Positions 1,507 through 10,406 of a DNA stretch of 10,406 nucleotides are shown piece after piece. How positions within the stretch are numbered: position 1 is the first letter of the stretch; every line of letters starts with the position of its first letter. Location of the stretch: IMG/VR virus record IMGVR_UViG_3300034782_000041, positions 1-10,406 of that record, one strand, 5' to 3'. A model generated the notes under the pieces. It worked only from the letters and a program-made list of their open reading frames with translations. It was not told the origin of the DNA and searched no databases. The stretch is from a virus. The translations under genes were made by a program, and so were the position numbers.

Positions 1507-2673
1507 CTAGCGCTGGGTTGGTGACGCAGCAGCGACGACACGTTGTTGTGCAAGCTCAACATACTCAGCGTTCATTTCAACACCTAGAAAGCTTAGCTCC
1601 TCGTATGCGCAAGCTACACCCGTCGTTCCTGAGCCTGTAAACGGGTCGAGCACGACCCCCCCTGGGGGTGTAACCAAACGCGCGAGCCATCGCATCAGCG
1701 CGACAGGTTTGACTGTCGGATGGTTGTTGCTTTGATCGCCGAGTCCAGCATCCCGTTCCTTCTTCGTTGCTTTGGCGCAATAGAAGAAACGTGACACGCC
1801 ACCAACTTGCGTGTCGAGCAGTGCCGCGGACTCTTCATCCAAGACCAGATTTGCCGGCCAGCGACCACCGTCTTTGCCGGCGATTTCAGATCGGTTTGCG
1901 CTTGTCCACCCCGACGCTGACGTTGTCGTCTTGCCGAGTCTACGGACCAATGTCTCGTCTGTAGTAATTCGGCAACCGTCGATGTTGAGTGCGCCTGTAT
2001 GATGCCGAAGAACGTTCTTGGCCACGGTGCCAATCAGAGGTTTACGTATCAATAGGATTGGCTCCCAAGCAGGCTTGAGCGAAGTTCCCCATCCCTCCCA
2101 TTCAGTAGCAGCGCTCGGTTGTTGCTTGGCGACGGCCTTCGCGACATCAAGTGACTTCGGAAAGCCTTGTCCGTAGATCCAGGCAAGGCAGTCTCTGAGT
2201 TCCCAACCTACATCCTCAAGCGCACACGCTAGTCGATGATACGTACGCGTGCCGCCGAACACTACACCGTACGCACCGGGTTTCACAACCCGTAGTACCT
2301 CACGTGCCCACTGTTCGTGCCACGCTTGCATTTGGTTCCAGCGATCATCTGCCTGAGAAAAATCTGGCTCCGCGCAAACGCACGGAGATCCGCCGTGAGA
2401 CAGGTGGCCACACTTGCGGCATCGCAGCTCGTTCCAGCCTCGATTCAACGGCCAGGGCGTTGTACGCTCACCGATACCAGGCTTTGAAGCGCGACCGGCC
2501 CCCGTCGTGTATTCGGGGGCCTTACCACCTAACCGATCCCAATCCTTACCCATGAACTCCAGCCCGTAGGGCGGATCAGTAACCAATGCATCGATGAAAG
2601 GTTGGTTGATCCTACGTAAGACCTCCACACAGTCTCCGTGGATCAGCCGCTGCAATGGCGAGGACATACCCAC
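1507..2673 (-). CDS. DNA methyltransferase, beta-class amino-MTase (N6-adenine or N4-cytosine; Pfam N6_N4_Mtase-like)
   Basis: N-terminal LIHGDCVEVLRRI (motif X-like). DPPY (motif IV) is encoded at 2566..2577. C-terminal VVLDPFTGSGTTGVA (motif I, FxGxG) is at ~1620..1660. The order IV-before-I is the beta-class permutation. Internal VVKPGAYGVVFGG and LLIRKP segments are typical of the family. A Cys cluster C-x2-C-x9-C-x-C (RCRKCGHLSHGGSPCVC) is encoded at ~2374..2421. Start is GTG 2673 or ATG 2667, directly after the stop of the upstream gene. Confidence 0.9.
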   Translation of the reverse strand: MGMSSPLQRLIHGDCVEVLRRINQPFIDALVTDPPYGLEFMGKDWDRLGGKAPEYTTGAGRASKPGIGERTTPWPLNRGWNELRCRKCGHLSHGGSPCVCAEPDFSQADDRWNQMQAWHEQWAREVLRVVKPGAYGVVFGGTRTYHRLACALEDVGWELRDCLAWIYGQGFPKSLDVAKAVAKQQPSAATEWEGWGTSLKPAWEPILLIRKPLIGTVAKNVLRHHTGALNIDGCRITTDETLVRRLGKTTTSASGWTSANRSEIAGKDGGRWPANLVLDEESAALLDTQVGGVSRFFYCAKATKKERDAGLGDQSNNHPTVKPVALMRWLARLVTPPGGVVLDPFTGSGTTGVACAYEELSFLGVEMNAEYVELAQQRVVAAASPTQR

Positions 2674-3541: not shown

Positions 3542-5971
3542 CTAGCTTTCTGGCTGCGGTCGCTCAACCTCCTCAACGTCGATCACGTTCGAGGGCTGTT
3601 GTACCTCGACCTCGACCTCGTCGGTGAGGATCTTCACGCAGTCTACACGATACGGATCAGGCGCTTCGGGAAGGATCACGTCCATGAACTCCGCGAAGCG
3701 TCCCTGCTTGAACAACTCCTCGAAGGCCTGGATCTCGATTCCGTTCGCGCTGACGTAGTTGACGCCCTTCAGGATAGCGTCGATGGCTGCGCTCGGGTCG
3801 AGACCTACGATGTTGCCTTCCTCATCGATCACGCCTTCCTCAGCTAGCTGCGCGATCATTTGAGGATCACCGTTCGCTTCCTGGAAGCGTTCCAGGTTTT
3901 CGAGGAACGTCCGTACGCCAGTCCGTAGCCGCGTTACGGACTCCAAAGCTACGCCGAACCATTCCTCGTCGGTATGGCCTGCACGACGCATTGGGATGAC
4001 CTTCGCAGCCACCGTCTGGCCCGTTTTTGGGTCAGTCACGCCCTCGTCCATGTCGATAGGCGGTTTGGGTGCCGCAGGCTTTCCAGGCCGAGGTCGCGCA
4101 GTCGTTGGTGGCGGCGGCTCAGCACCGCTAAGCCCAGCTGTAGCCGCCGCACCGGGTTGATCTGACTTTCCGTTGCCTTTTCGAGTGGGCCCGGTGTGGC
4201 CGCTGCGCGTAGTGAACTCGGCGTCCTTCTTCGCCTGTGCTTGTTGAGCCGCTGCGGCTGCCGCCGCGGCTTGTGCTTGCATCGCGGCTGCACGAACTTG
4301 CGCTTCGCCCTGCGCCTTCGCGGCAGCAATGCGTGCTTCACTTTGTGCTTGGGCTGCTTTCATTCCGATGTAGCGCTCAGCCATCTCGCCGGCACGGCTC
4401 AGTCCCTGCTCGATGATTCGAGCAGCAGGCGGTTCTGGCGCTCCACCGGTCAGCTGTGCAACCTGTTCGATGGCATTACGCATCGTCCCGAAGATGCCGC
4501 CGAATGTCTCGGTGACGTTCTTCAGCAACATGTCGGTGCCCGAGCTGGAATCGCGGATGATGCCGGCGAGGGCCTGCGGCGTCATCATCATCTGTGCCAT
4601 GCGGTCGCTTGACATCTGCTGCATGCGAGCAATCTCGCGCAGGTTCTCTGCCTGCATGCGCGCCTGTTCCTGCGAGAGCCGCGCATTCTCCTTCATGTAC
4701 TCGACCATCGCATCGGGACGGTTCGCAGTCGCTTCCTTGAGTGCGATCTGCATTCGACCCTCTTGTTCGCGCATCTGCTGTGCAAGCTGTTCTTGCTGTC
4801 GCTGCGACTCCCAGCGTTCCCGTTCGTGTTGCTGCTGAGCTTGCTGGATCCGCGCCTCCTCATGCGCTTTCTGGATCTCCAACTCCAGCGTGCGAAGTCG
4901 GGGATCGTCGGTCGGCTTCTCAGCAATCTTGCCGATCGCCTCTTGCATTACCCGAAATTGCTGCGCGAGCTGATCGCGTTCCCGTTCACGTTCTACGCGC
5001 TGGCGTTCTTCACGTGCGCGACGAACCTCCTCGTTCTCTTTGTCCTTGTTGCCTTCCCCAAGCCGCCGGATTTCGTCTCGCAGCGTCTGCATCTCGCTGG
5101 CATGCTGCTGCTGCGCGCGTTCGAGCGCAGCCTTGTGCTCGATTTCTCGTTGGGCCAGCTCGCGCTGCCTCAGCTCTTCATCTCGACGACGAATCTCCTC
5201 TTGGAAGCGCTGACGCTCTTGCTCACGCTCCTTCTGACGCTCGCGCTCTTCCCGCTCGCGCTCACGCCGCTCATAGTCCCGCTCCCAACGGCGCGACGAT
5301 GAGCCGTTGTTGTCGCCGAAGCCACGCAGCGATGTCGGGTGGTACGGCGCACCGTACGGCGTCCCATACGGCTGAGGGTACGGCGGAGGCCATGCGCCTG
5401 CCGTATTCCAGGGACCCGGTTGTGGCAGCTGAGGGGCCTGCTGAGGGGCCTGCTGTGGCGCTTGTGGGGCCTGCTGCGGTAGTTGGTAGTTCGGGTAGCC
5501 GAACGTTGATGCTGGTGGAGGCCAGTGGGAGTTGCTCATACCAAACGGAACTCCTTGTTGCGAGACCGGTTGCGCAACGGGTGCTTGCTGTGGATTCACG
5601 GGCACACCCGCCGGAAGTGCCTGCGGGCTGAGTTGAGCAGCTGTTGCTTGATTCGGTGGGACCTTCTCAGGATAGGTGCGTGGATCGTAGACGCTCTCCC
5701 ACTTCATTGTCTCGCCGTTGGCATCCGTAACCGAGAAGATGTAGTAGCCGCCACCTGACCACTCGGTGAGGAGCCAGTTTTCCAGCGAGAGCACGTCTTC
5801 GCGCGACCAGTTCGTTCCAGGAGGGGCTCCGTCGCCTTTGCCTGGAATCTCGATGCTCATTGAGGAGGAGCCGCGCTTTTTCTGGACCCGCACGCTGATA
5901 GGTTCTTGCATGCGTTGCAGCTTCGCCTGATCGAATTCGAGGGGAGTCTTGATCCTGGTTGGGGTTGCCAT
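3542..5971 (-). CDS. Large (809 aa) low-complexity multi-domain protein: N-terminal globular domain, P/Q-rich linker, long ER/K-rich charged single-alpha-helix/coiled-coil, poly-Ala helix, G/P linker, C-terminal globular domain with an acidic tail
   Basis: Uninterrupted 2.4-kb ORF. Domains read directly from the translation. The N-terminal domain is aa 1-100, including NWSREDVLSLENWLLTEWSGGGYYIF. QAPQ repeats and PYG repeats span aa 100-215. RERERE/EELRQRE runs span aa 226-460. AQAQAAAAAAAAQQAQA is at aa 540-585. The G/P-rich linker is aa 586-650. The C-terminal domain is aa 660-780. Plus-strand ORFs across this span have typical antisense A/R/P/S composition. The RBS upstream of ATG 5971 is weak. 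Confidence 0.75.
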   Translation of the reverse strand: MATPTRIKTPLEFDQAKLQRMQEPISVRVQKKRGSSSMSIEIPGKGDGAPPGTNWSREDVLSLENWLLTEWSGGGYYIFSVTDANGETMKWESVYDPRTYPEKVPPNQATAAQLSPQALPAGVPVNPQQAPVAQPVSQQGVPFGMSNSHWPPPASTFGYPNYQLPQQAPQAPQQAPQQAPQLPQPGPWNTAGAWPPPYPQPYGTPYGAPYHPTSLRGFGDNNGSSSRRWERDYERREREREERERQKEREQERQRFQEEIRRRDEELRQRELAQREIEHKAALERAQQQHASEMQTLRDEIRRLGEGNKDKENEEVRRAREERQRVERERERDQLAQQFRVMQEAIGKIAEKPTDDPRLRTLELEIQKAHEEARIQQAQQQHERERWESQRQQEQLAQQMREQEGRMQIALKEATANRPDAMVEYMKENARLSQEQARMQAENLREIARMQQMSSDRMAQMMMTPQALAGIIRDSSSGTDMLLKNVTETFGGIFGTMRNAIEQVAQLTGGAPEPPAARIIEQGLSRAGEMAERYIGMKAAQAQSEARIAAAKAQGEAQVRAAAMQAQAAAAAAAAQQAQAKKDAEFTTRSGHTGPTRKGNGKSDQPGAAATAGLSGAEPPPPTTARPRPGKPAAPKPPIDMDEGVTDPKTGQTVAAKVIPMRRAGHTDEEWFGVALESVTRLRTGVRTFLENLERFQEANGDPQMIAQLAEEGVIDEEGNIVGLDPSAAIDAILKGVNYVSANGIEIQAFEELFKQGRFAEFMDVILPEAPDPYRVDCVKILTDEVEVEVQQPSNVIDVEEVERPQPES
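5400..5480. repeat. In-frame tandem ~12-nt repeats (GAGGGGCCTGCT-like) encoding the QAPQ repeats of the 809-aa protein
   Basis: gaggggcctgctgaggggcctgctgtggcgcttgtggggcctgctg is seen directly. Coding low-complexity, on the minus-strand gene. Confidence 0.6.
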
Positions 5972-6096
5972 AGCGTGACGATACGCAGAGTCTTAGTTGT
6001 GTGCAAGAAATTCCCGAGATCGCGTCCGCGATCAAACGCCGAACGGCAACAAATTCGGTTGCTGGGGGTAACCCAGCGTGATACCGATAGTTAACT
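5972..6096. promoter_or_regulatory. Divergent intergenic region (125 bp) with several inverted repeats: GATCGCG-TC-CGCGATC (6018..6033), GCAAC-N7-GTTGC (6046..6062), and a perfect 12-bp palindrome ATAGTTAACTAT (6087..6098) overlapping the ATG of the downstream gene
   Basis: Seen directly in the sequence. It lies between the start of the 809-aa gene (minus) and the start of the 6097 operon (plus). A partial direct repeat AGCGTGA(C)GATAC occurs at 5972..5985 and 6075..6090. Confidence 0.45.
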
Positions 6097-6516
6097 ATGG
6101 CGATTGACAGAATGATTGTTCCGAAGGATCGCGTGTTTGAACGCGGACGTGGTTGTTACAACTGCCGACACTTCGAGAACGGTGAACTCGCGCGCAATCA
6201 TTGGCGTTCCCGTCGGCCGCAAGACGAGATAGCAATCCTCGAACGCACTGGGGGCATCGCCAACCTGGGCACAATCTCACCCAACGATCAACGCTTCCAG
6301 TCACTAAATGACATGGAAAAAGCAGTGATGATGGGGCAGGCCGGAATGTGCATGGTGGGGAAAGTCCAAACAGACTTTGTGCACTTCAAATACCTCTGCG
6401 ACGCCTGGACTGGAAAAGAAGGTGCGTCAGCGGCAACCGAAGGACATCCGCTAGATCCACTACCTGCTGAGCTGAAAGAGATCGCAGAAGCCCGCGCGAA
6501 AAAGCACGAAGACTGA
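6097..6516 (+). CDS. Hypothetical Cys-containing protein (139 aa; GCYNC...CMVGK...C), first gene of a coupled plus-strand operon
   Basis: ORF with sensible composition. Its stop TGA 6514..6516 is followed one base later by the next ATG. No strong SD; the start lies within the AT-rich palindrome. Confidence 0.55.
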   Translation: MAIDRMIVPKDRVFERGRGCYNCRHFENGELARNHWRSRRPQDEIAILERTGGIANLGTISPNDQRFQSLNDMEKAVMMGQAGMCMVGKVQTDFVHFKYLCDAWTGKEGASAATEGHPLDPLPAELKEIAEARAKKHED

Positions 6517-6517
6517 G

Positions 6518-7030
6518 ATGAGTGAGTACACACCCGAGTACGTATTGGCTTCTGCGCTAACGCCGATCCTTTACGGTTTGGTTGCGTCCTCACTCTACTA
6601 TCTCGGCTCCCGAGCCAAGATCACGGAATTTCTCTGGTCACACTATCCACCGGCCTTCGACCGATTCATGATGTGCGCAGCATGTACAGGCTTCTGGTGG
6701 GGTCTTGGCGCAGCATTTGTGATCGGTTGGTGGCACGAGTTGCCATTTTTGTTGTTACCGGGTCGTTACTGGATGACGCCGGTCGTAGTCGCGCTCACTT
6801 CCGTTGTACTCACACCAGTTTTCGGTGCATTACACCTACGTGCACTTGAATATACGAATGCGATGCCCTTGGAGGAGTCCGAATCAACCCCACCAGAGCA
6901 ACCCAAGACGGTCATTAGTCCGTCAGCAGTTCTTCCAGCTGCCGGCAACCATCTTGGACGCCTCGGCGAATCGACCCCACTAGATCAACCCGAGATGGTA
7001 TCGTCGGAACAAGAGGACACTGATGGGTAG
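6518..7030 (+). CDS. Integral membrane protein (170 aa, 3-4 Trp-rich TM helices, acidic Ser/Glu-rich C-terminal tail); possible holin-like protein
   Basis: Hydrophobic segments: VLASALTPILYGLVASSLYYLG, FMMCAACTGFWWGLGAAFVIGWW and WMTPVVVALTSVVLTPVFGAL. Its ATG is coupled to the upstream stop. It overlaps the next gene by 8 nt. Confidence 0.6.
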   Translation: MSEYTPEYVLASALTPILYGLVASSLYYLGSRAKITEFLWSHYPPAFDRFMMCAACTGFWWGLGAAFVIGWWHELPFLLLPGRYWMTPVVVALTSVVLTPVFGALHLRALEYTNAMPLEESESTPPEQPKTVISPSAVLPAAGNHLGRLGESTPLDQPEMVSSEQEDTDG

Positions 7031-7457
7031 ACCACCGAAAAACCCGGACGCGCCATGGTGGCGAACCATCCGTGAGTGCGAGATAAGCATGATCAAGTAT
7101 GCCTTCACACACGCCCGCTCGGTTCGGCAAGCTGCAAAGGGTCTTGGGATATCAAGTCCATACTTGATGAGTAAAGCGAAGCAGTACGGGTGCACGCTTC
7201 CAGGGAAACCAACAACCGAGTCGAGTGAAGGACAAGTGAGCGATCAGGCGCCAAAGAAAACAAGAACACGTAGGAAGACACGTCGCAAGACGCGACGCAA
7301 AACCAATACGCCAAGCGCTTCGATCGACAACGTCGTTCCAATTAGCCGTGTTGACGACGTCGATGGCGAAAACTTCGATGACGACGACTTTGACGGCGAT
7401 AACGACGACTTCGGTGACGACGACTTCGACGACAACACTCCCGATCATGCGTCATGA
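7023..7457 (+). CDS. Fis/NtrC-type helix-turn-helix (HTH_8-like) DNA-binding protein with a (RRKT)3 basic repeat and a poly-Asp/Phe acidic C-terminal tail
   Basis: aa 15-56, IRECEISMIKYAFTHARSVRQAAKGLGISSPYLMSKAKQYG, matches the Fis-family pattern (xxALxxxxGNxSxAAxxLGISRxTLYRKLKKYG). KKTRTRRKTRRKTRRKT is encoded at 7254..7301. DDVDGENFDDDDFDGDNDDFGDDDFDD is encoded at 7353..7433. ATG 7023 overlaps the upstream gene; the stop overlaps the next start (ATGA at 7454). Confidence 0.65.
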   Translation: MGRPPKNPDAPWWRTIRECEISMIKYAFTHARSVRQAAKGLGISSPYLMSKAKQYGCTLPGKPTTESSEGQVSDQAPKKTRTRRKTRRKTRRKTNTPSASIDNVVPISRVDDVDGENFDDDDFDGDNDDFGDDDFDDNTPDHAS

Positions 7458-7807
7458 ATACGTCTACGACTCTGCGTACACCAGCGGTGGGAGTCGTACC
7501 CCCAGGGGGCACCGTTACGGTGACAATCGAGAAAGTCATCACGGCACGAGAAGTTCCCATTGTGCTGACAGCACAACCGCAAACCCTCACGATTCGCGCA
7601 GTGTATCCACACAGCGTCGAAATTGCTAACCTGTCAGCCGCGCCAGTTCCCTACGTCCTACTCATCATCCCCAACGTAGCGCTCAAACTCGTTTCTGTGC
7701 CATGGACACGTGTAGCAGAAGCGCTCAGCTCGCCGGCAGGCCGTTCTGCAATCTTGGAAAAGCTTACACAGCTCTTCTTGGGTGCCGGTCGCCAGCTCGA
7801 CAAATAA
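7454..7807 (+). CDS. Hypothetical T/V-rich (beta-rich) protein (117 aa)
   Basis: ATGA start/stop overlap with the upstream gene. Stop TAA 7805..7807 is followed one base later by the next ATG. The alternative-frame ORF 7348..7629 is a low-complexity artefact. Confidence 0.5.
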   Translation: MNTSTTLRTPAVGVVPPGGTVTVTIEKVITAREVPIVLTAQPQTLTIRAVYPHSVEIANLSAAPVPYVLLIIPNVALKLVSVPWTRVAEALSSPAGRSAILEKLTQLFLGAGRQLDK

Positions 7808-7808
7808 C

Positions 7809-8000
7809 ATGCAAAGGTGCTGTTTCTGCAATAGGTGGTTCAAGTCGCGTCAGGCCGTTCGTGGACATCTTCGCACTTGTGAAGATTACAAGGCGTCGAA
7901 AGCTACCTATGTCTGTCCGGTATGCTCGACCTGCGTGTTGCAAGAAGATCTCCCTGTAGCATGCCCGACCTGCGCTACGATGTTACCTGTCGAACAGTGA
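7809..8000 (+). CDS. Small two-zinc-finger protein (63 aa): classical C2HC finger (C-x2-C-x3-F-x5-V-x2-H-x3-C) plus a CPxC...CPxC zinc ribbon; candidate transcription factor
   Basis: MQRCCFCNRWFKSRQAVRGHLRTC has canonical C2H2-type spacing. YVCPVCSTC...ACPTC is a Cys4 ribbon. ATG 7809 comes right after the upstream stop. The listed ORF start 7782 is a GTG inside the upstream gene with no SD. Confidence 0.55.
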   Translation: MQRCCFCNRWFKSRQAVRGHLRTCEDYKASKATYVCPVCSTCVLQEDLPVACPTCATMLPVEQ

Positions 8001-8070: not shown

Positions 8071-8907
8071 ATGACACCTAAACAAGTGCAGAAAGCTGCT
8101 GCGTTCAACGCCAGAGAGGCTAAGCAAGGCGACTACACGCAAAAGCATCAAGTACGGCTCATCGAGTTCTGGCAAGAGCATCACGGGCTGCTGGCCGACG
8201 GATGGTGCGGTGCGTTTACGCAAAAGTCGATTGATGGCAGTATTGCAGTAGACTGGAATCAAGACGTGCATGACATCTTGGCCAACGAGGACCAGTACGT
8301 TGACGGGTTGTGGCTTCCCTGGGATGGACCAGAGAAATCCCAGCCGAGAAACTACAAAGAGGCCATCGAGTTCTTTGGTAGGCCTGAGACACACAAAGGA
8401 TCGGATGTTCTCGACAGAGCTTGGTACAAAGCCAACATCGTTGAGTGTCACAAGAAGCTAGGCAATCAGCTTCCAGGTGTGCCAGAGCGGTGGTGGGTGA
8501 AAACGTACCGTCGATGCGAGCCCTACCTACGTGAAGGTCTACGCCGTGCTTCGCTTACATCTCCCTACCGCATTCAACGCTGTGGCGGATTCGTCTTTCG
8601 CCACATCCGCAACGACCCGGACAAAGACCTGTCCATGCACGCGTTCGGTGCTGCAATCGACTTCGATCCTGATTGGAACTACGCATACCAATACAAGCGC
8701 GGCGCCGACGTGCCCAAGGCCTGGTCACCTCAGTGGCTGAGAAAGTGGCCGAAGGGCATCGATGAAAAGTTCGTGCAAGCTATGGCTAGCTGCGGTTGGG
8801 CGTGGGGCTCGGACTGGGATGAGGACGGCCGCACTGACGACCATTTGTGGCAAGACCCGATGCACATGGAATGGATCGCCCGAGACGGCCGCAGTCGTAT
8901 GGTGTAG
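8071..8907 (+). CDS. Endolysin: N-terminal peptidoglycan-binding (PG_binding_1-like) domain plus C-terminal peptidase M15 (VanY / L-Ala-D-Glu peptidase-type zinc peptidase)
   Basis: aa 27-58 VRLIEFWQEHHGLLADGWCGAFTQKSI fits the PG_binding_1 pattern. SMHAFGAAIDFDPD (H190-x6-D197) and DPMHME (H265) form the M15 H-x6-D...H zinc triad. SD-like GAAGGG lies 12 nt upstream of ATG 8071. Confidence 0.85.
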   Translation: MTPKQVQKAAAFNAREAKQGDYTQKHQVRLIEFWQEHHGLLADGWCGAFTQKSIDGSIAVDWNQDVHDILANEDQYVDGLWLPWDGPEKSQPRNYKEAIEFFGRPETHKGSDVLDRAWYKANIVECHKKLGNQLPGVPERWWVKTYRRCEPYLREGLRRASLTSPYRIQRCGGFVFRHIRNDPDKDLSMHAFGAAIDFDPDWNYAYQYKRGADVPKAWSPQWLRKWPKGIDEKFVQAMASCGWAWGSDWDEDGRTDDHLWQDPMHMEWIARDGRSRMV

Positions 8908-8937: not shown

Positions 8938-9016
8938 TCGCTGGATGCCGAAAAGGCCATCTAGCGACCGTGTTGTCCCTGTTCTACCAACGGCACCTAC
9001 CTGGAAGGGCGCAGGC

Positions 9017-9310
9017 ATGGTAGATGCCACCCCAGAAGCCGTGTTTCCCCGAGATCTGCGCATAACGGCCGAGCGCATCATCGATCTCTGCGACCCGATT
9101 TTCGCTGAGAACTCGACCATCGCCGAGGTAGACAAAGCCGTCGATGACATCATTGACGTACTAGCTGAGGCCGTCACACACGAAACCGAGGAGCTGCGTG
9201 ACGCGCTCTATGAGATGTTGCAGAGCCACCGCTACCGGTTTCCTCTCAACGGAAAGTGCCACTGCGCGGCGTGCAGACACGCAGCACTTTTGGTTGAGGG
9301 CGACAACTAG
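9017..9310 (+). CDS. Hypothetical acidic protein (97 aa; alternative start ATG 8945 gives 121 aa) with a C-terminal CHCAACRH motif
   Basis: ATG 9017 is preceded by GGAAGGG with a 7-nt spacer. ATG 8945 has no SD. Stop TAG 9308..9310 is followed 2 nt later by the next ATG. Confidence 0.5.
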   Translation: MVDATPEAVFPRDLRITAERIIDLCDPIFAENSTIAEVDKAVDDIIDVLAEAVTHETEELRDALYEMLQSHRYRFPLNGKCHCAACRHAALLVEGDN

Positions 9311-9312
9311 AG

Positions 9313-9879
9313 ATGTCACACCTTTTCAACATCGTTGAGAATACGATACGTCAAATGATCGTTCCGGTAGGGACACGCATCGAGGTCCCGTCACATGACG
9401 ACGACCCACAAGGGCATCAATGGATTCTCATGGGTATCGCGGTCGTACCGCACCCGAGCTACACGTCGCCGGGCACTGATCGCGACATGCGTACCTTCGG
9501 TGATGTATGCGTCTACTTCGACGACGAGCGAATCCTACACCGACTGAACGCGTATACGTTGATGGATCGTTATTGGGGTAGGTACAACTTGAGTCCCGAG
9601 CTACCCGATCTGACTGCAAAGCTAGAGATGATGCAGCACGCGGCACGGTCGGCACCTAGACTTCTCGACCTCGCACAGGCGATCGAAGCAGCCCGCGACG
9701 CACTAATCTACTACCAACAGGCGGTGACGCCCCTATTTGACAAACCCATCACTGTGCCTGCTGGGCGAACGTTTCGGGTCGTTCAACTGCCGTGCAAAGA
9801 CGATTCCCCTTTCCGTTACAGCAACATTGACGTGGAGCTATTCGTCATTGTCCGACGTCCAGTCAAGCAGCCGGATTGA
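9313..9879 (+). CDS. Hypothetical protein (188 aa)
   Basis: ORF coupled to the upstream stop. Globular-looking composition with no recognisable motif. Confidence 0.55.
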   Translation: MSHLFNIVENTIRQMIVPVGTRIEVPSHDDDPQGHQWILMGIAVVPHPSYTSPGTDRDMRTFGDVCVYFDDERILHRLNAYTLMDRYWGRYNLSPELPDLTAKLEMMQHAARSAPRLLDLAQAIEAARDALIYYQQAVTPLFDKPITVPAGRTFRVVQLPCKDDSPFRYSNIDVELFVIVRRPVKQPD

Positions 9880-9934: not shown

Positions 9935-10129
9935 ATGATCAGCCTTATAGCAAGTCAGCTGAAACAGCTCAGCAACACGGCACCGCCTGGCGTCGGCAAC
10001 GTCGCATTGGCGCTTGCGGCTGCACAGCGCGACTTGCTGGCATTGATCGCCGAGGAATACGAGGATCTTCCCGCGGAGGCGAAAGCAGCTGCTGTGGACA
10101 TACTAGGAGGAAAAGCGTGGCCGAGATAA
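9935..10129 (+). CDS. Small helical hypothetical protein (64 aa; start uncertain, possibly TTG 9893 or 9923)
   Basis: This frame runs through to TAA 10127..10129, which overlaps the next gene's start region. The upstream part of the listed ORF 9737..10129 overlaps gene 9313..9879 and is rejected. No clear SD. Confidence 0.35.
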   Translation: MISLIASQLKQLSNTAPPGVGNVALALAAAQRDLLALIAEEYEDLPAEAKAAAVDILGGKAWPR

Positions 10130-10406
10130 CGATGAGCCTACCCGAGTACCAAGAGTTGACCTCACAGCGGGATGACGCACGCCGCGAAGCGGCTGAGCTA
10201 CGCGACCAGCTCCGTAAGGCCGAGATGCGTGACCCCGAGGGCCGCATTCCTAATCTCGTGCTAGGCATGGAAGCGGCACTCTCGGTGATCAAGTTCGCCG
10301 TCGGGAACCTAGCCCCCGAGACGGTTCGTGGTTGGCCTTACCCAGACTTGCTCACTTTCGTGGACGCGCTTGAGAAGCTACCCGGCGTAGGTACCGAAAC
10401 CAAAGA
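10117..10406 (+). CDS. Hypothetical protein, 5' partial in window (at least 96 aa), GTG start
   Basis: AGGAGG (10105..10110) sits 6 nt upstream of GTG 10117. The frame stays open to the window end (…MSLPEYQELTSQRDDARREAAELRDQLRKAEMRDPEGR…). It overlaps the upstream gene's stop by 13 nt. It is absent from the ORF track because no stop falls within the window. Confidence 0.5.
   Translation, partial: MAEITMSLPEYQELTSQRDDARREAAELRDQLRKAEMRDPEGRIPNLVLGMEAALSVIKFAVGNLAPETVRGWPYPDLLTFVDALEKLPGVGTETK

Follow-up and report, generated by a model that had tools for sequence, protein, structure and literature searches.

A composite operon with a conserved core and a variable slot in an uncultured lineage of large phages

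Does a run of five abutting phage genes represent one functional unit? The question is raised by positions 6097-8000 of a 10,406-nucleotide (nt) stretch of the IMG/VR record IMGVR_UViG_3300034782_000041 (the whole stretch is here called the window), which hold five forward-strand open reading frames (ORFs), g1 to g5. A preliminary description had read them as a translationally coupled, stoichiometrically expressed operon just upstream of a lysin gene. Its account of their content holds: g1 has four cysteines, g2 three hydrophobic segments and six tryptophans, g3 a probable helix-turn-helix (HTH) and g5 a putative zinc finger. Judged from its sequence, the cassette lies at the promoter-proximal end of a rightward operon, in large phages of an uncultured lineage. 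The "five-gene operon" itself, however, is a composite: two of its genes are universal and belong to the core, two are semi-conserved and one is specific to a clade.

The comparison on which this rests covers 35 non-redundant lineages, obtained by merging loci at 90% g2 identity; g2 is present in all of them by construction, as it was the search query. Per-gene profiles were built from locus-derived orthologs and then mapped onto all loci, and genes in GC-rich loci were called with a filter on GC content at third codon positions (GC3), replacing longest-ORF calls that gave shadow ORFs. Gene order is collinear in every one of the 35 lineages. Where enough sequence is available, g1 lies upstream of g2 (31/31 lineages) and g0 lies upstream of g1 (25/25), and gX is present in all 26 lineages whose sequence extends 1.4 kb or more beyond g2. 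The lineage-wide core, in fixed order, is g0 (divergent), g1, g2 and gX, the last being the universal downstream end of the block. The other cassette genes come and go: g3 was found in 19/32 lineages, g4 in 14/32 and only where g3 is also present, and g5 in 4/26 (the window, L009, L012 and L018, such numbers denoting our loci). Between g2 and gX the content varies: depending on the lineage, this slot holds g3, g3 with g4, g3 to g5 with a lysin gene, other small ORFs, or nothing. Because the presence of g3, g4 and g5 differs among lineages, the cassette is not a five-part unit, and the expectation that the five genes co-occur fails beyond the universal g1-g2 pair. In the window's clade, g5, a peptidoglycan hydrolase gene and further genes lie between g4 and gX, which is found 2-6 kb further downstream (about 2 kb past the cassette in the window).

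The relatives are all metagenomic, on contigs of up to 244 kb (a groundwater metagenome), and the window itself was found at 100% identity on metagenomic contigs of up to 147 kb. IMG/VR scans with a single g1 or g2 protein found no relatives; only the g2 profile recovered relatives there. Nine IMG/VR viral contigs of 30-138 kb carry relatives. The block also occurs on two contigs of metagenome-assembled genomes, binned as Polyangiales and Actinomycetes. The GenBank phage collection (50,697 deposited genomes) holds no cultured relative: it gave no DNA match to the cassette and no protein match to g1, g2, g0 or a divergent g0.

The tight junctions of the cassette are real. On direct reading of the sequence, all four are exactly as first described: the TGA of g1 (6514-6516) is followed by a single g (6517) and the ATG of g2 (6518); the ATG of g3 (7023) precedes the TAG of g2 (7028-7030), an 8-nt overlap (7023-7030); the ATG of g4 (7454) and the TGA of g3 (7455-7457) share an ATGA (7454-7457); and the TAA of g4 (7805-7807), a c (7808) and the ATG of g5 (7809) follow one another, g5 ending at 8000. 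Public gene callers disagree on these starts, as JGI begins g3 at 7089 and g4 at 7520 and lacks g5, whereas Logan begins g3 at 7023 and g4 at 7454. Conservation in relatives reaches 5' of the JGI starts ("APYW..LR..E" in g3, "RTPA.G.VPP.GTV" in g4) and all four g5 orthologs have a Met at the same position, directly after the g4 stop; the starts at 7023, 7454 and 7809, those of the preliminary description, are therefore the best supported. Database proteins for the window phage that derive from the JGI calls are partly wrong, for example P0023, with 95 amino acids (aa) for g4. Since Shine-Dalgarno sequences are absent at g4 and g5 and at best weak at g2 (g3 has AGAGGA and gX AGGAGG), translational coupling by termination-reinitiation appears plausible at the g1-g2, g3-g4 and g4-g5 junctions.

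The geometry alone is nonetheless not special, because tight packing is a habit of this genome: in L001, a 20.5-kb locus from a 35-kb contig, 8 of the 21 other same-strand junctions outside the cassette, counted by hand from the gene table, overlap or lie at most 4 nt apart. Nor is a fixed stoichiometric coupling required, since unrelated genes split the g1-g2 junction in six lineages. The inserts are peptide deformylase genes (L012 and L018), HNH-like genes (L014 and L031) and small ORFs (L015 and L028).

What does hold is the proposal of a single operon, which is supported by a conserved promoter abutting g1, the conserved gene order and the lack of a convincing terminator inside 6097-8000. 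A terminator-like hairpin with a T-run at 6728-6747 lies within the g2 coding sequence, where it encodes GWWHELPFLLL, and is probably incidental. The 125-nt spacer between g0 and g1 is better conserved than the flanking proteins in four lineages and carries predicted divergent promoters. On the g0 side, the same architecture (TTGCAC-N17-TACCCT-N6/7-ATG) recurs in L012, L018 and L009, and the g0 mRNA is predicted to be leaderless. On the g1 side, a TTGnnn-N16-18-TAnnnn element ending 6-9 nt before the start codon was found in 10 of the 18 lineages examined, against an estimated chance rate of 2-3% per sequence. An AGAAATTC box abuts the g0 -35 element and a second AAATTC box (6051-6056) abuts that of g1; AGAAATTC occurs twice in the window, against 0.21 copies expected, the other copy lying inside g2 (6626-6633, minus strand). 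Between the two promoters lies a palindrome that is kept, with single-arm variants, in L012, L018 and L009 and that we regard as a candidate operator. A gene for an N6/N4 DNA methyltransferase (1507-2673, minus strand; N6_N4_Mtase, E 1e-33; phrog_67) is located 3.3 kb from this palindrome. As the predicted promoter of this long operon, at g1, is of host type, early or middle expression is suggested.

The first gene of the operon, g1, belongs to a family of only 215 representative clusters, as retrieved by an exhaustive profile search among 1.84 billion proteins, and almost all members are stand-alone proteins of 120-200 aa. Four cysteines stand out as invariant: among 127 homologs, C20, C23 and C101 are found in 100%, C85 in 99%. 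The AlphaFold2 (AF2) model of g1 reached a predicted local distance difference test (pLDDT) score of 91.4, and a structural search with the predicted fold returned no neighbour; g1 represents a new family, and its fold is confidently predicted. An initial AF2 model from 8 sequences (pLDDT 55) had been discarded. Sequence searches of PADLOC, NCBIfam and the PDB were negative for g1 as well as for g2, g4, g0 and gX. A relationship to WhiB-like iron-sulfur proteins was considered and rejected, given a cysteine spacing of C-x2-C-x61-C-x15-C in place of C-Xn-C-X2-C-X5-C and the lack of any match between the Pfam Whib profile and 11 g1 members at E <= 10.

Several g1 homologs (P0055, P0061, P0132, P0158, P0160 and the one in L044) contain a class-1 intein of 321-345 aa with a LAGLIDADG homing endonuclease; the window's copy is intein-free. 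The intein is inserted between N22 and C23, inside the CxxC motif, with C23 as the +1 extein residue, and its junctions read "...GCWN/C[LV].G[DE][SA]L ... LVHN/C...", the slash marking the boundary. These inteins match Pfam Intein_splicing (E 1e-7 to 1e-11) and LAGLIDADG_3 (E 1e-12 to 1e-18), and have the class-1 attributes of Cys 1, a C-terminal His-Asn, Cys +1 and Hint plus LAGLIDADG domains. The sites where inteins reside are the conserved functional motifs of proteins that are essential. Because the insertion lies in the CxxC, g1 can be regarded as a translated core protein with this motif as its functional centre. In a separate variation, the g1 homolog at L028:8686-9273 has an insertion in its variable middle part, a SEC-C-like metal-binding motif (CPCGSGQKYKRCH).

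The adjacent membrane protein g2 is the best-conserved protein of the block, with 14 invariant residues and 40-78% identity, compared with about 30% for g0. Its invariant motif, Y-L..A.IT...W..Y...C.AC.GFW.G, covers a basic loop and runs into the second hydrophobic segment, and its C-terminal tail is acidic and variable. Seven of 16 homologs, the window's g2 not among them, gave weak matches to DUF2085 below the Pfam threshold (best E 0.011), and phrog_781 (function not assigned) was matched weakly (E 0.0023). A suspicion that g2 might be DUF1360-like was dropped, as none of 16 members matched Pfam DUF1360 at E <= 10.

Upstream, the divergent g0 product starts with a conserved N-terminal domain (about residues 1-170) with ~110 very conserved aa (W..EWSGGG.Y ... 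YPEK.PP), followed by a P/Q-rich linker, an E/R/Q coiled coil of about 250 aa and a conserved C-terminal domain (the last ~220 residues); it has no Pfam, PHROG or PDB relative. The statement that the cassette matches no described phage module stands, as none of the genes matches one.

Taken as a whole, our favoured explanation is a composite operon of a conserved core and a variable slot, with a metalloprotein-membrane protein pair and accessory DNA-binding proteins; we consider it about evenly poised between right and wrong. Its parts differ in strength. It is rather probable that a sigma-70-type promoter with a -10 element ending 6-9 nt before the g1 ATG would give an mRNA with a short leader or none, and that g2, g4 and g5 would be translated by termination-reinitiation. 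By the positive-inside rule, the conserved basic loop and CxxC of g2 would face the cytoplasm. We suggest tentatively that g1, a soluble protein, could bind metal through its four cysteines and act on the cytoplasmic side of g2, and that the pair might perform an essential membrane-associated step early or midway in infection. More doubtful is the idea that g3 and g5 would act as accessory DNA-binding proteins, either regulating the g0 and g1 promoters via the 6018-6033 palindrome or tethering and organising phage DNA at a membrane site.

Several points weigh against this explanation. The -10-like hexamer of g1, TACCGA, lacks the final T, and a sigma-70 scan at a stricter threshold found no promoter. 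None of the core proteins has a functionally characterised relative, so that an interaction of g1 with g2, the bound metal and the time of action are all putative. A hydrolase recurs in the slot in five lineages, more than expected if the block were unrelated to the cell envelope, and structural genes could have been missed in the flanks, for which 25 of 38 PHROG families were listed.

As described at the outset, the cassette is a fairly ordinary tight phage operon of unannotated genes, and the domains of g3, g5 and the lysin are of familiar types. The novelty lies in the four-gene core that defines the lineage and above all in the g1 family, with its new predicted fold, invariant Cys4 set and intein. 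It is tempting to speculate, with less conviction than we have in the composite operon, that g0, g1, g2 and gX form an undescribed essential membrane-associated metalloprotein machine defining a deep uncultured large-phage lineage (contigs 120-244 kb), in which g1 would have a new fold for metal binding or redox chemistry, of enough importance for a homing intein to have colonised it, and the g2-gX gap would be a dedicated "plug-in" slot recruiting DNA-binding proteins and hydrolases. Four families without known relatives that always occur together define a group of uncultured large phages from groundwater and other environmental metagenomes. A search for a new essential phage function could well begin with protein g1 and its membrane partner g2, and the slot is a natural example of accessory regulators and lysins being swapped into a fixed operon.

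Of the accessory proteins, g3 resembles the DNA-binding domains of the Fis/NtrC type. It matches Pfam HTH_50 with E 1e-4 and 22.2 bits, under the cut-off of 27, and its orthologs carry precomputed hits to HTH_50 (L018) and HTH_8 (L016). Against the PDB, the family profile found the NtrC DNA-binding domain first (E 0.004), followed by ZraR, Fis and FleQ; every one of these matches covers the same 40 residues. From the N-terminal HTH (residues ~16-56) the protein continues into a basic tract (61-100, with 13 K+R), then an NVVP motif and finally a poly-acidic tail (101-144, with 19 D+E). We rejected the options that g3 is Fis proper or a sigma-54 enhancer-binding protein, as everything outside the HTH is low-complexity basic or acidic sequence and no AAA+ domain was found. 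The tails are polyelectrolytes, a K/R-rich tract preceding a D/E run of up to ~60 residues in L030, and NVVP[LIF] separates the two tracts in five lineages.

Protein g4 gave no Pfam, PHROG or PDB match and has no relatives outside the block. In g5, the ligands of a putative C2HC finger (C4-x2-C7-x12-H20-x3-C24) are invariant in the 4 orthologs, and the matches to zf-C2H2_jaz (21.1 versus 22.6 bits) and zf-C2H2_4 (20.3 versus 27) lie under the Pfam thresholds. Its C-terminal half is a rubredoxin-like ribbon with two CxxC knuckles (C36, C39, C52 and C55 invariant); the g5 profile matched a rubredoxin domain in the PDB (E 6.6e-5) and, under the cut-off, the NCBIfam rubrerythrin-like domain (E 0.0098). 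No g5 relative was found in IMG/VR, and reverse scans with the g3, g4 and g5 profiles were uninformative or negative.

The hydrolases in the slot come from five lineages and four unrelated families without cross-matches. That of the window matches Pfam Peptidase_M15_4 over residues 185-251 with 30.3 bits (cut-off 25), and the Amidase_2 protein of L030 is encoded between g3 and gX. The pattern looks like lysin replacement at a fixed position, and the lysin would be interchangeable cargo rather than what the block is centred on. The link first drawn between cassette and lysin is not conserved, as a hydrolase lies inside the block in only these five lineages.

Genes flanking the block are mostly unannotated, and the recognisable ones serve DNA metabolism: a Dda-like helicase, exonuclease V, endonuclease VII, methyltransferases, ThyX, a DUF5906 primase-helicase-like protein, SNF2 and a HerA-type ATPase. 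For 108 flanking ORFs from six lineages, the families listed (25 of 38 PHROG families) include no capsid, portal or tail family, and no double-jelly-roll family was detected in the flanks. A PHROG with the label "terminase large subunit" is matched (E 3e-21) by two of the pooled ORFs from the flanks; these are presumably the HerA/DUF87 ATPase, whose best PDB relatives are HerA helicases. In relatives this ATPase gene lies between the lysin gene and g7; it is not in that slot in the window's genome. Two further genes downstream of the lysin gene, g7 and g8, have no family match and follow the HerA gene, before gX, in relatives. Coordinates are collected in Table 1.

Table 1. Features of the window and of related loci. 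Positions without a prefix refer to the window; a prefix names the related locus.
Feature	Position	Strand	Description
g0	3542-5971	-	809 aa in window, 670-826 aa among relatives; always divergent from g1
g0 promoter (predicted)	5978-6006	-	TTGCAC-N17-TATCGT, -10 ends 6 nt before g0 ATG; one match in window
AGAAATTC box	6006-6013	+	Abuts g0 -35; invariant in four lineages
Palindrome (candidate operator)	6018-6033		GATCGC-gtcc-GCGATC, between divergent promoters; unique in window; two GATC sites
g1 promoter (predicted)	6059-6088	+	TTGCTG 6059-6064, N17, -10-like element in conserved GTGATACCGAT (6078-6088), N9, ATG
g1	6097-6516	+	139 aa, soluble; core gene, first in operon
g2	6518-7030	+	170 aa, three predicted transmembrane segments; core gene
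g3	7023-7457	+	144 aa, Fis/NtrC-type HTH; accessory
g4	7454-7807	+	117 aa, beta-rich; accessory
g5	7809-8000	+	63 aa, two predicted metal sites; only in window's own clade
Peptidoglycan hydrolase (lysin)	8071-8907	+	Peptidase_M15_4
g7	8945-9310		Downstream of lysin; kept in L012, L018, L009
g8	9313-9879		Downstream of lysin; kept in L012, L018
gX	10117-10406	+	Helical, motif "FAVGNL.PE..RGWP"; GTG start after AGGAGG; runs off window end
Slot hydrolase, M15_4	8071-8907		Window
Slot hydrolase, M23	L009:11910-12662		
Slot hydrolases, PG_binding_1+3D	L012:12472-13449; L018:12626-13588		
Slot hydrolase, Amidase_2	L030:10845-11648		
g3 tails	7023-7457; L009:10796-11278; L013:1537-1968; L030:10299-10835		
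Intein-bearing g1	L044:6563-7975		179-kb contig, intact block
Peptide deformylase in g1-g2 junction	L012:10412-11032; L018:10492-11091		ATGA overlap with g2 start
HNH-like genes in g1-g2 junction	L014:9459-10067; L031:9519-9995		
HerA/DUF87 ATPase	L012:15124-16860; L018:15658-17415; L009:13325-15073; L016:17179-18879; L027:15314-16987		~560-585 aa; few kb from block

The recurrent hydrolases raise the question of whether the block is a lysis cassette, in which g2 would be a class-I-like holin, the hydrolase its endolysin, and g1 and g3-g5 would set lysis timing. The size of g2 and its predicted topology (three transmembrane segments, N-out/C-in, charged C-terminal tail) fit this role, and a same-strand hydrolase from four catalytic families in five lineages is a mosaic typical of lysis cassettes. 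We nevertheless judge this unlikely. Where downstream sequence is available, the g2-gX interval lacks a hydrolase in most lineages, and in several g2 is followed directly by gX. The strong conservation of g2 is unlike that of holins, no holin family in Pfam or PHROGs matches it, three genes and 1 kb separate it from the M15 lysin gene downstream, and the promoter resembles a host-type early promoter.

It also seems improbable to us that the block is a virion or entry module, with g0, g2, gX and the hydrolase as internal, ejection or membrane-associated virion proteins that breach the envelope, or as assembly factors of a membrane-containing virion. Conservation throughout a lineage is what morphogenetic genes typically show, and virion-associated hydrolases are often encoded beside ejection proteins, as with T7 gp16 and PRD1 P7. 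The neighbouring genes are of DNA metabolism, however, without any capsid, portal, tail or double-jelly-roll family among the flank families listed, and the promoters look host-type rather than late. The nearby ATPase that matches the terminase PHROG would suit such a module, being of the HerA/FtsK-type class reported to package DNA in membrane-containing viruses (PMC4267777). Its gene, though, is absent from this slot in the window's genome, and its best PDB relatives are HerA helicases.

The preliminary description can be read as proposing a five-subunit, stoichiometrically co-expressed complex for regulation or lysis timing, made of a membrane sensor and two transcription factors. Tight junctions, a membrane protein alongside two types of nucleic-acid-binding domain, and a conserved palindrome between divergent promoters are indeed present. 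The presence/absence pattern of g3, g4 and g5 largely refutes this complex, the interruption of g1-g2 in six lineages and the genome-wide tight packing also speak against it, and we hold it to be very unlikely. The other option raised there, an accessory defence, anti-defence or superinfection-exclusion cassette, might be suggested by small genes without assigned function, one encoding a membrane protein, near a DNA methyltransferase gene, but is barely credible given zero PADLOC-DB matches at E <= 1 for ten proteins (g1-g5, the lysin, g7, g8, g0 and a 162-aa ORF), a g1-g2 core that is syntenic in every relative where defence and counter-defence genes are typically variable, an intein in the functional motif of g1, and the fixed position beside g0.

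The composite operon shares features with several known systems without coinciding with any of them. Like the lambda S/R-type holin-endolysin cassettes, it places the genes for a small membrane protein with several transmembrane passes and for a hydrolase in a single transcription unit on the same strand, and the hydrolase family changes between relatives. It differs in the high conservation and invariant CxxC of g2, which matches no holin family, is not adjacent to the hydrolase and persists in most lineages with no hydrolase nearby. DUF2085 proteins, also predicted to be small and to cross the membrane several times, share with g2 a CxxC motif beside a transmembrane helix, but all matches are far under the Pfam threshold, and DUF2085 is itself without known function. 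The HTH of g3 aligns with those of NtrC, ZraR, Fis and FleQ; unlike in Fis and NtrC, it is N-terminal and stand-alone, lacks the Fis N-terminal arm and the AAA+ sigma-54 activator domain, and is followed by low-complexity basic and poly-acidic tails. In phi29, the early operon proteins p16.7, p1 and p6 organise DNA at the membrane. That operon is likewise tightly packed, with a small membrane protein encoded beside small proteins of a DNA-binding or architectural kind; the genomes considered here are far larger, no sequence or fold similarity is known, and phi29 has no known counterpart of g1 or g0. Core phage genes that bear inteins include those for terminase, helicase, polymerase and ribonucleotide reductase. 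Unlike these, g1 falls into no known family and its predicted fold has no structural neighbour, yet it shares with them a class-1 intein with a LAGLIDADG endonuclease, placed in the most conserved motif of the host protein.

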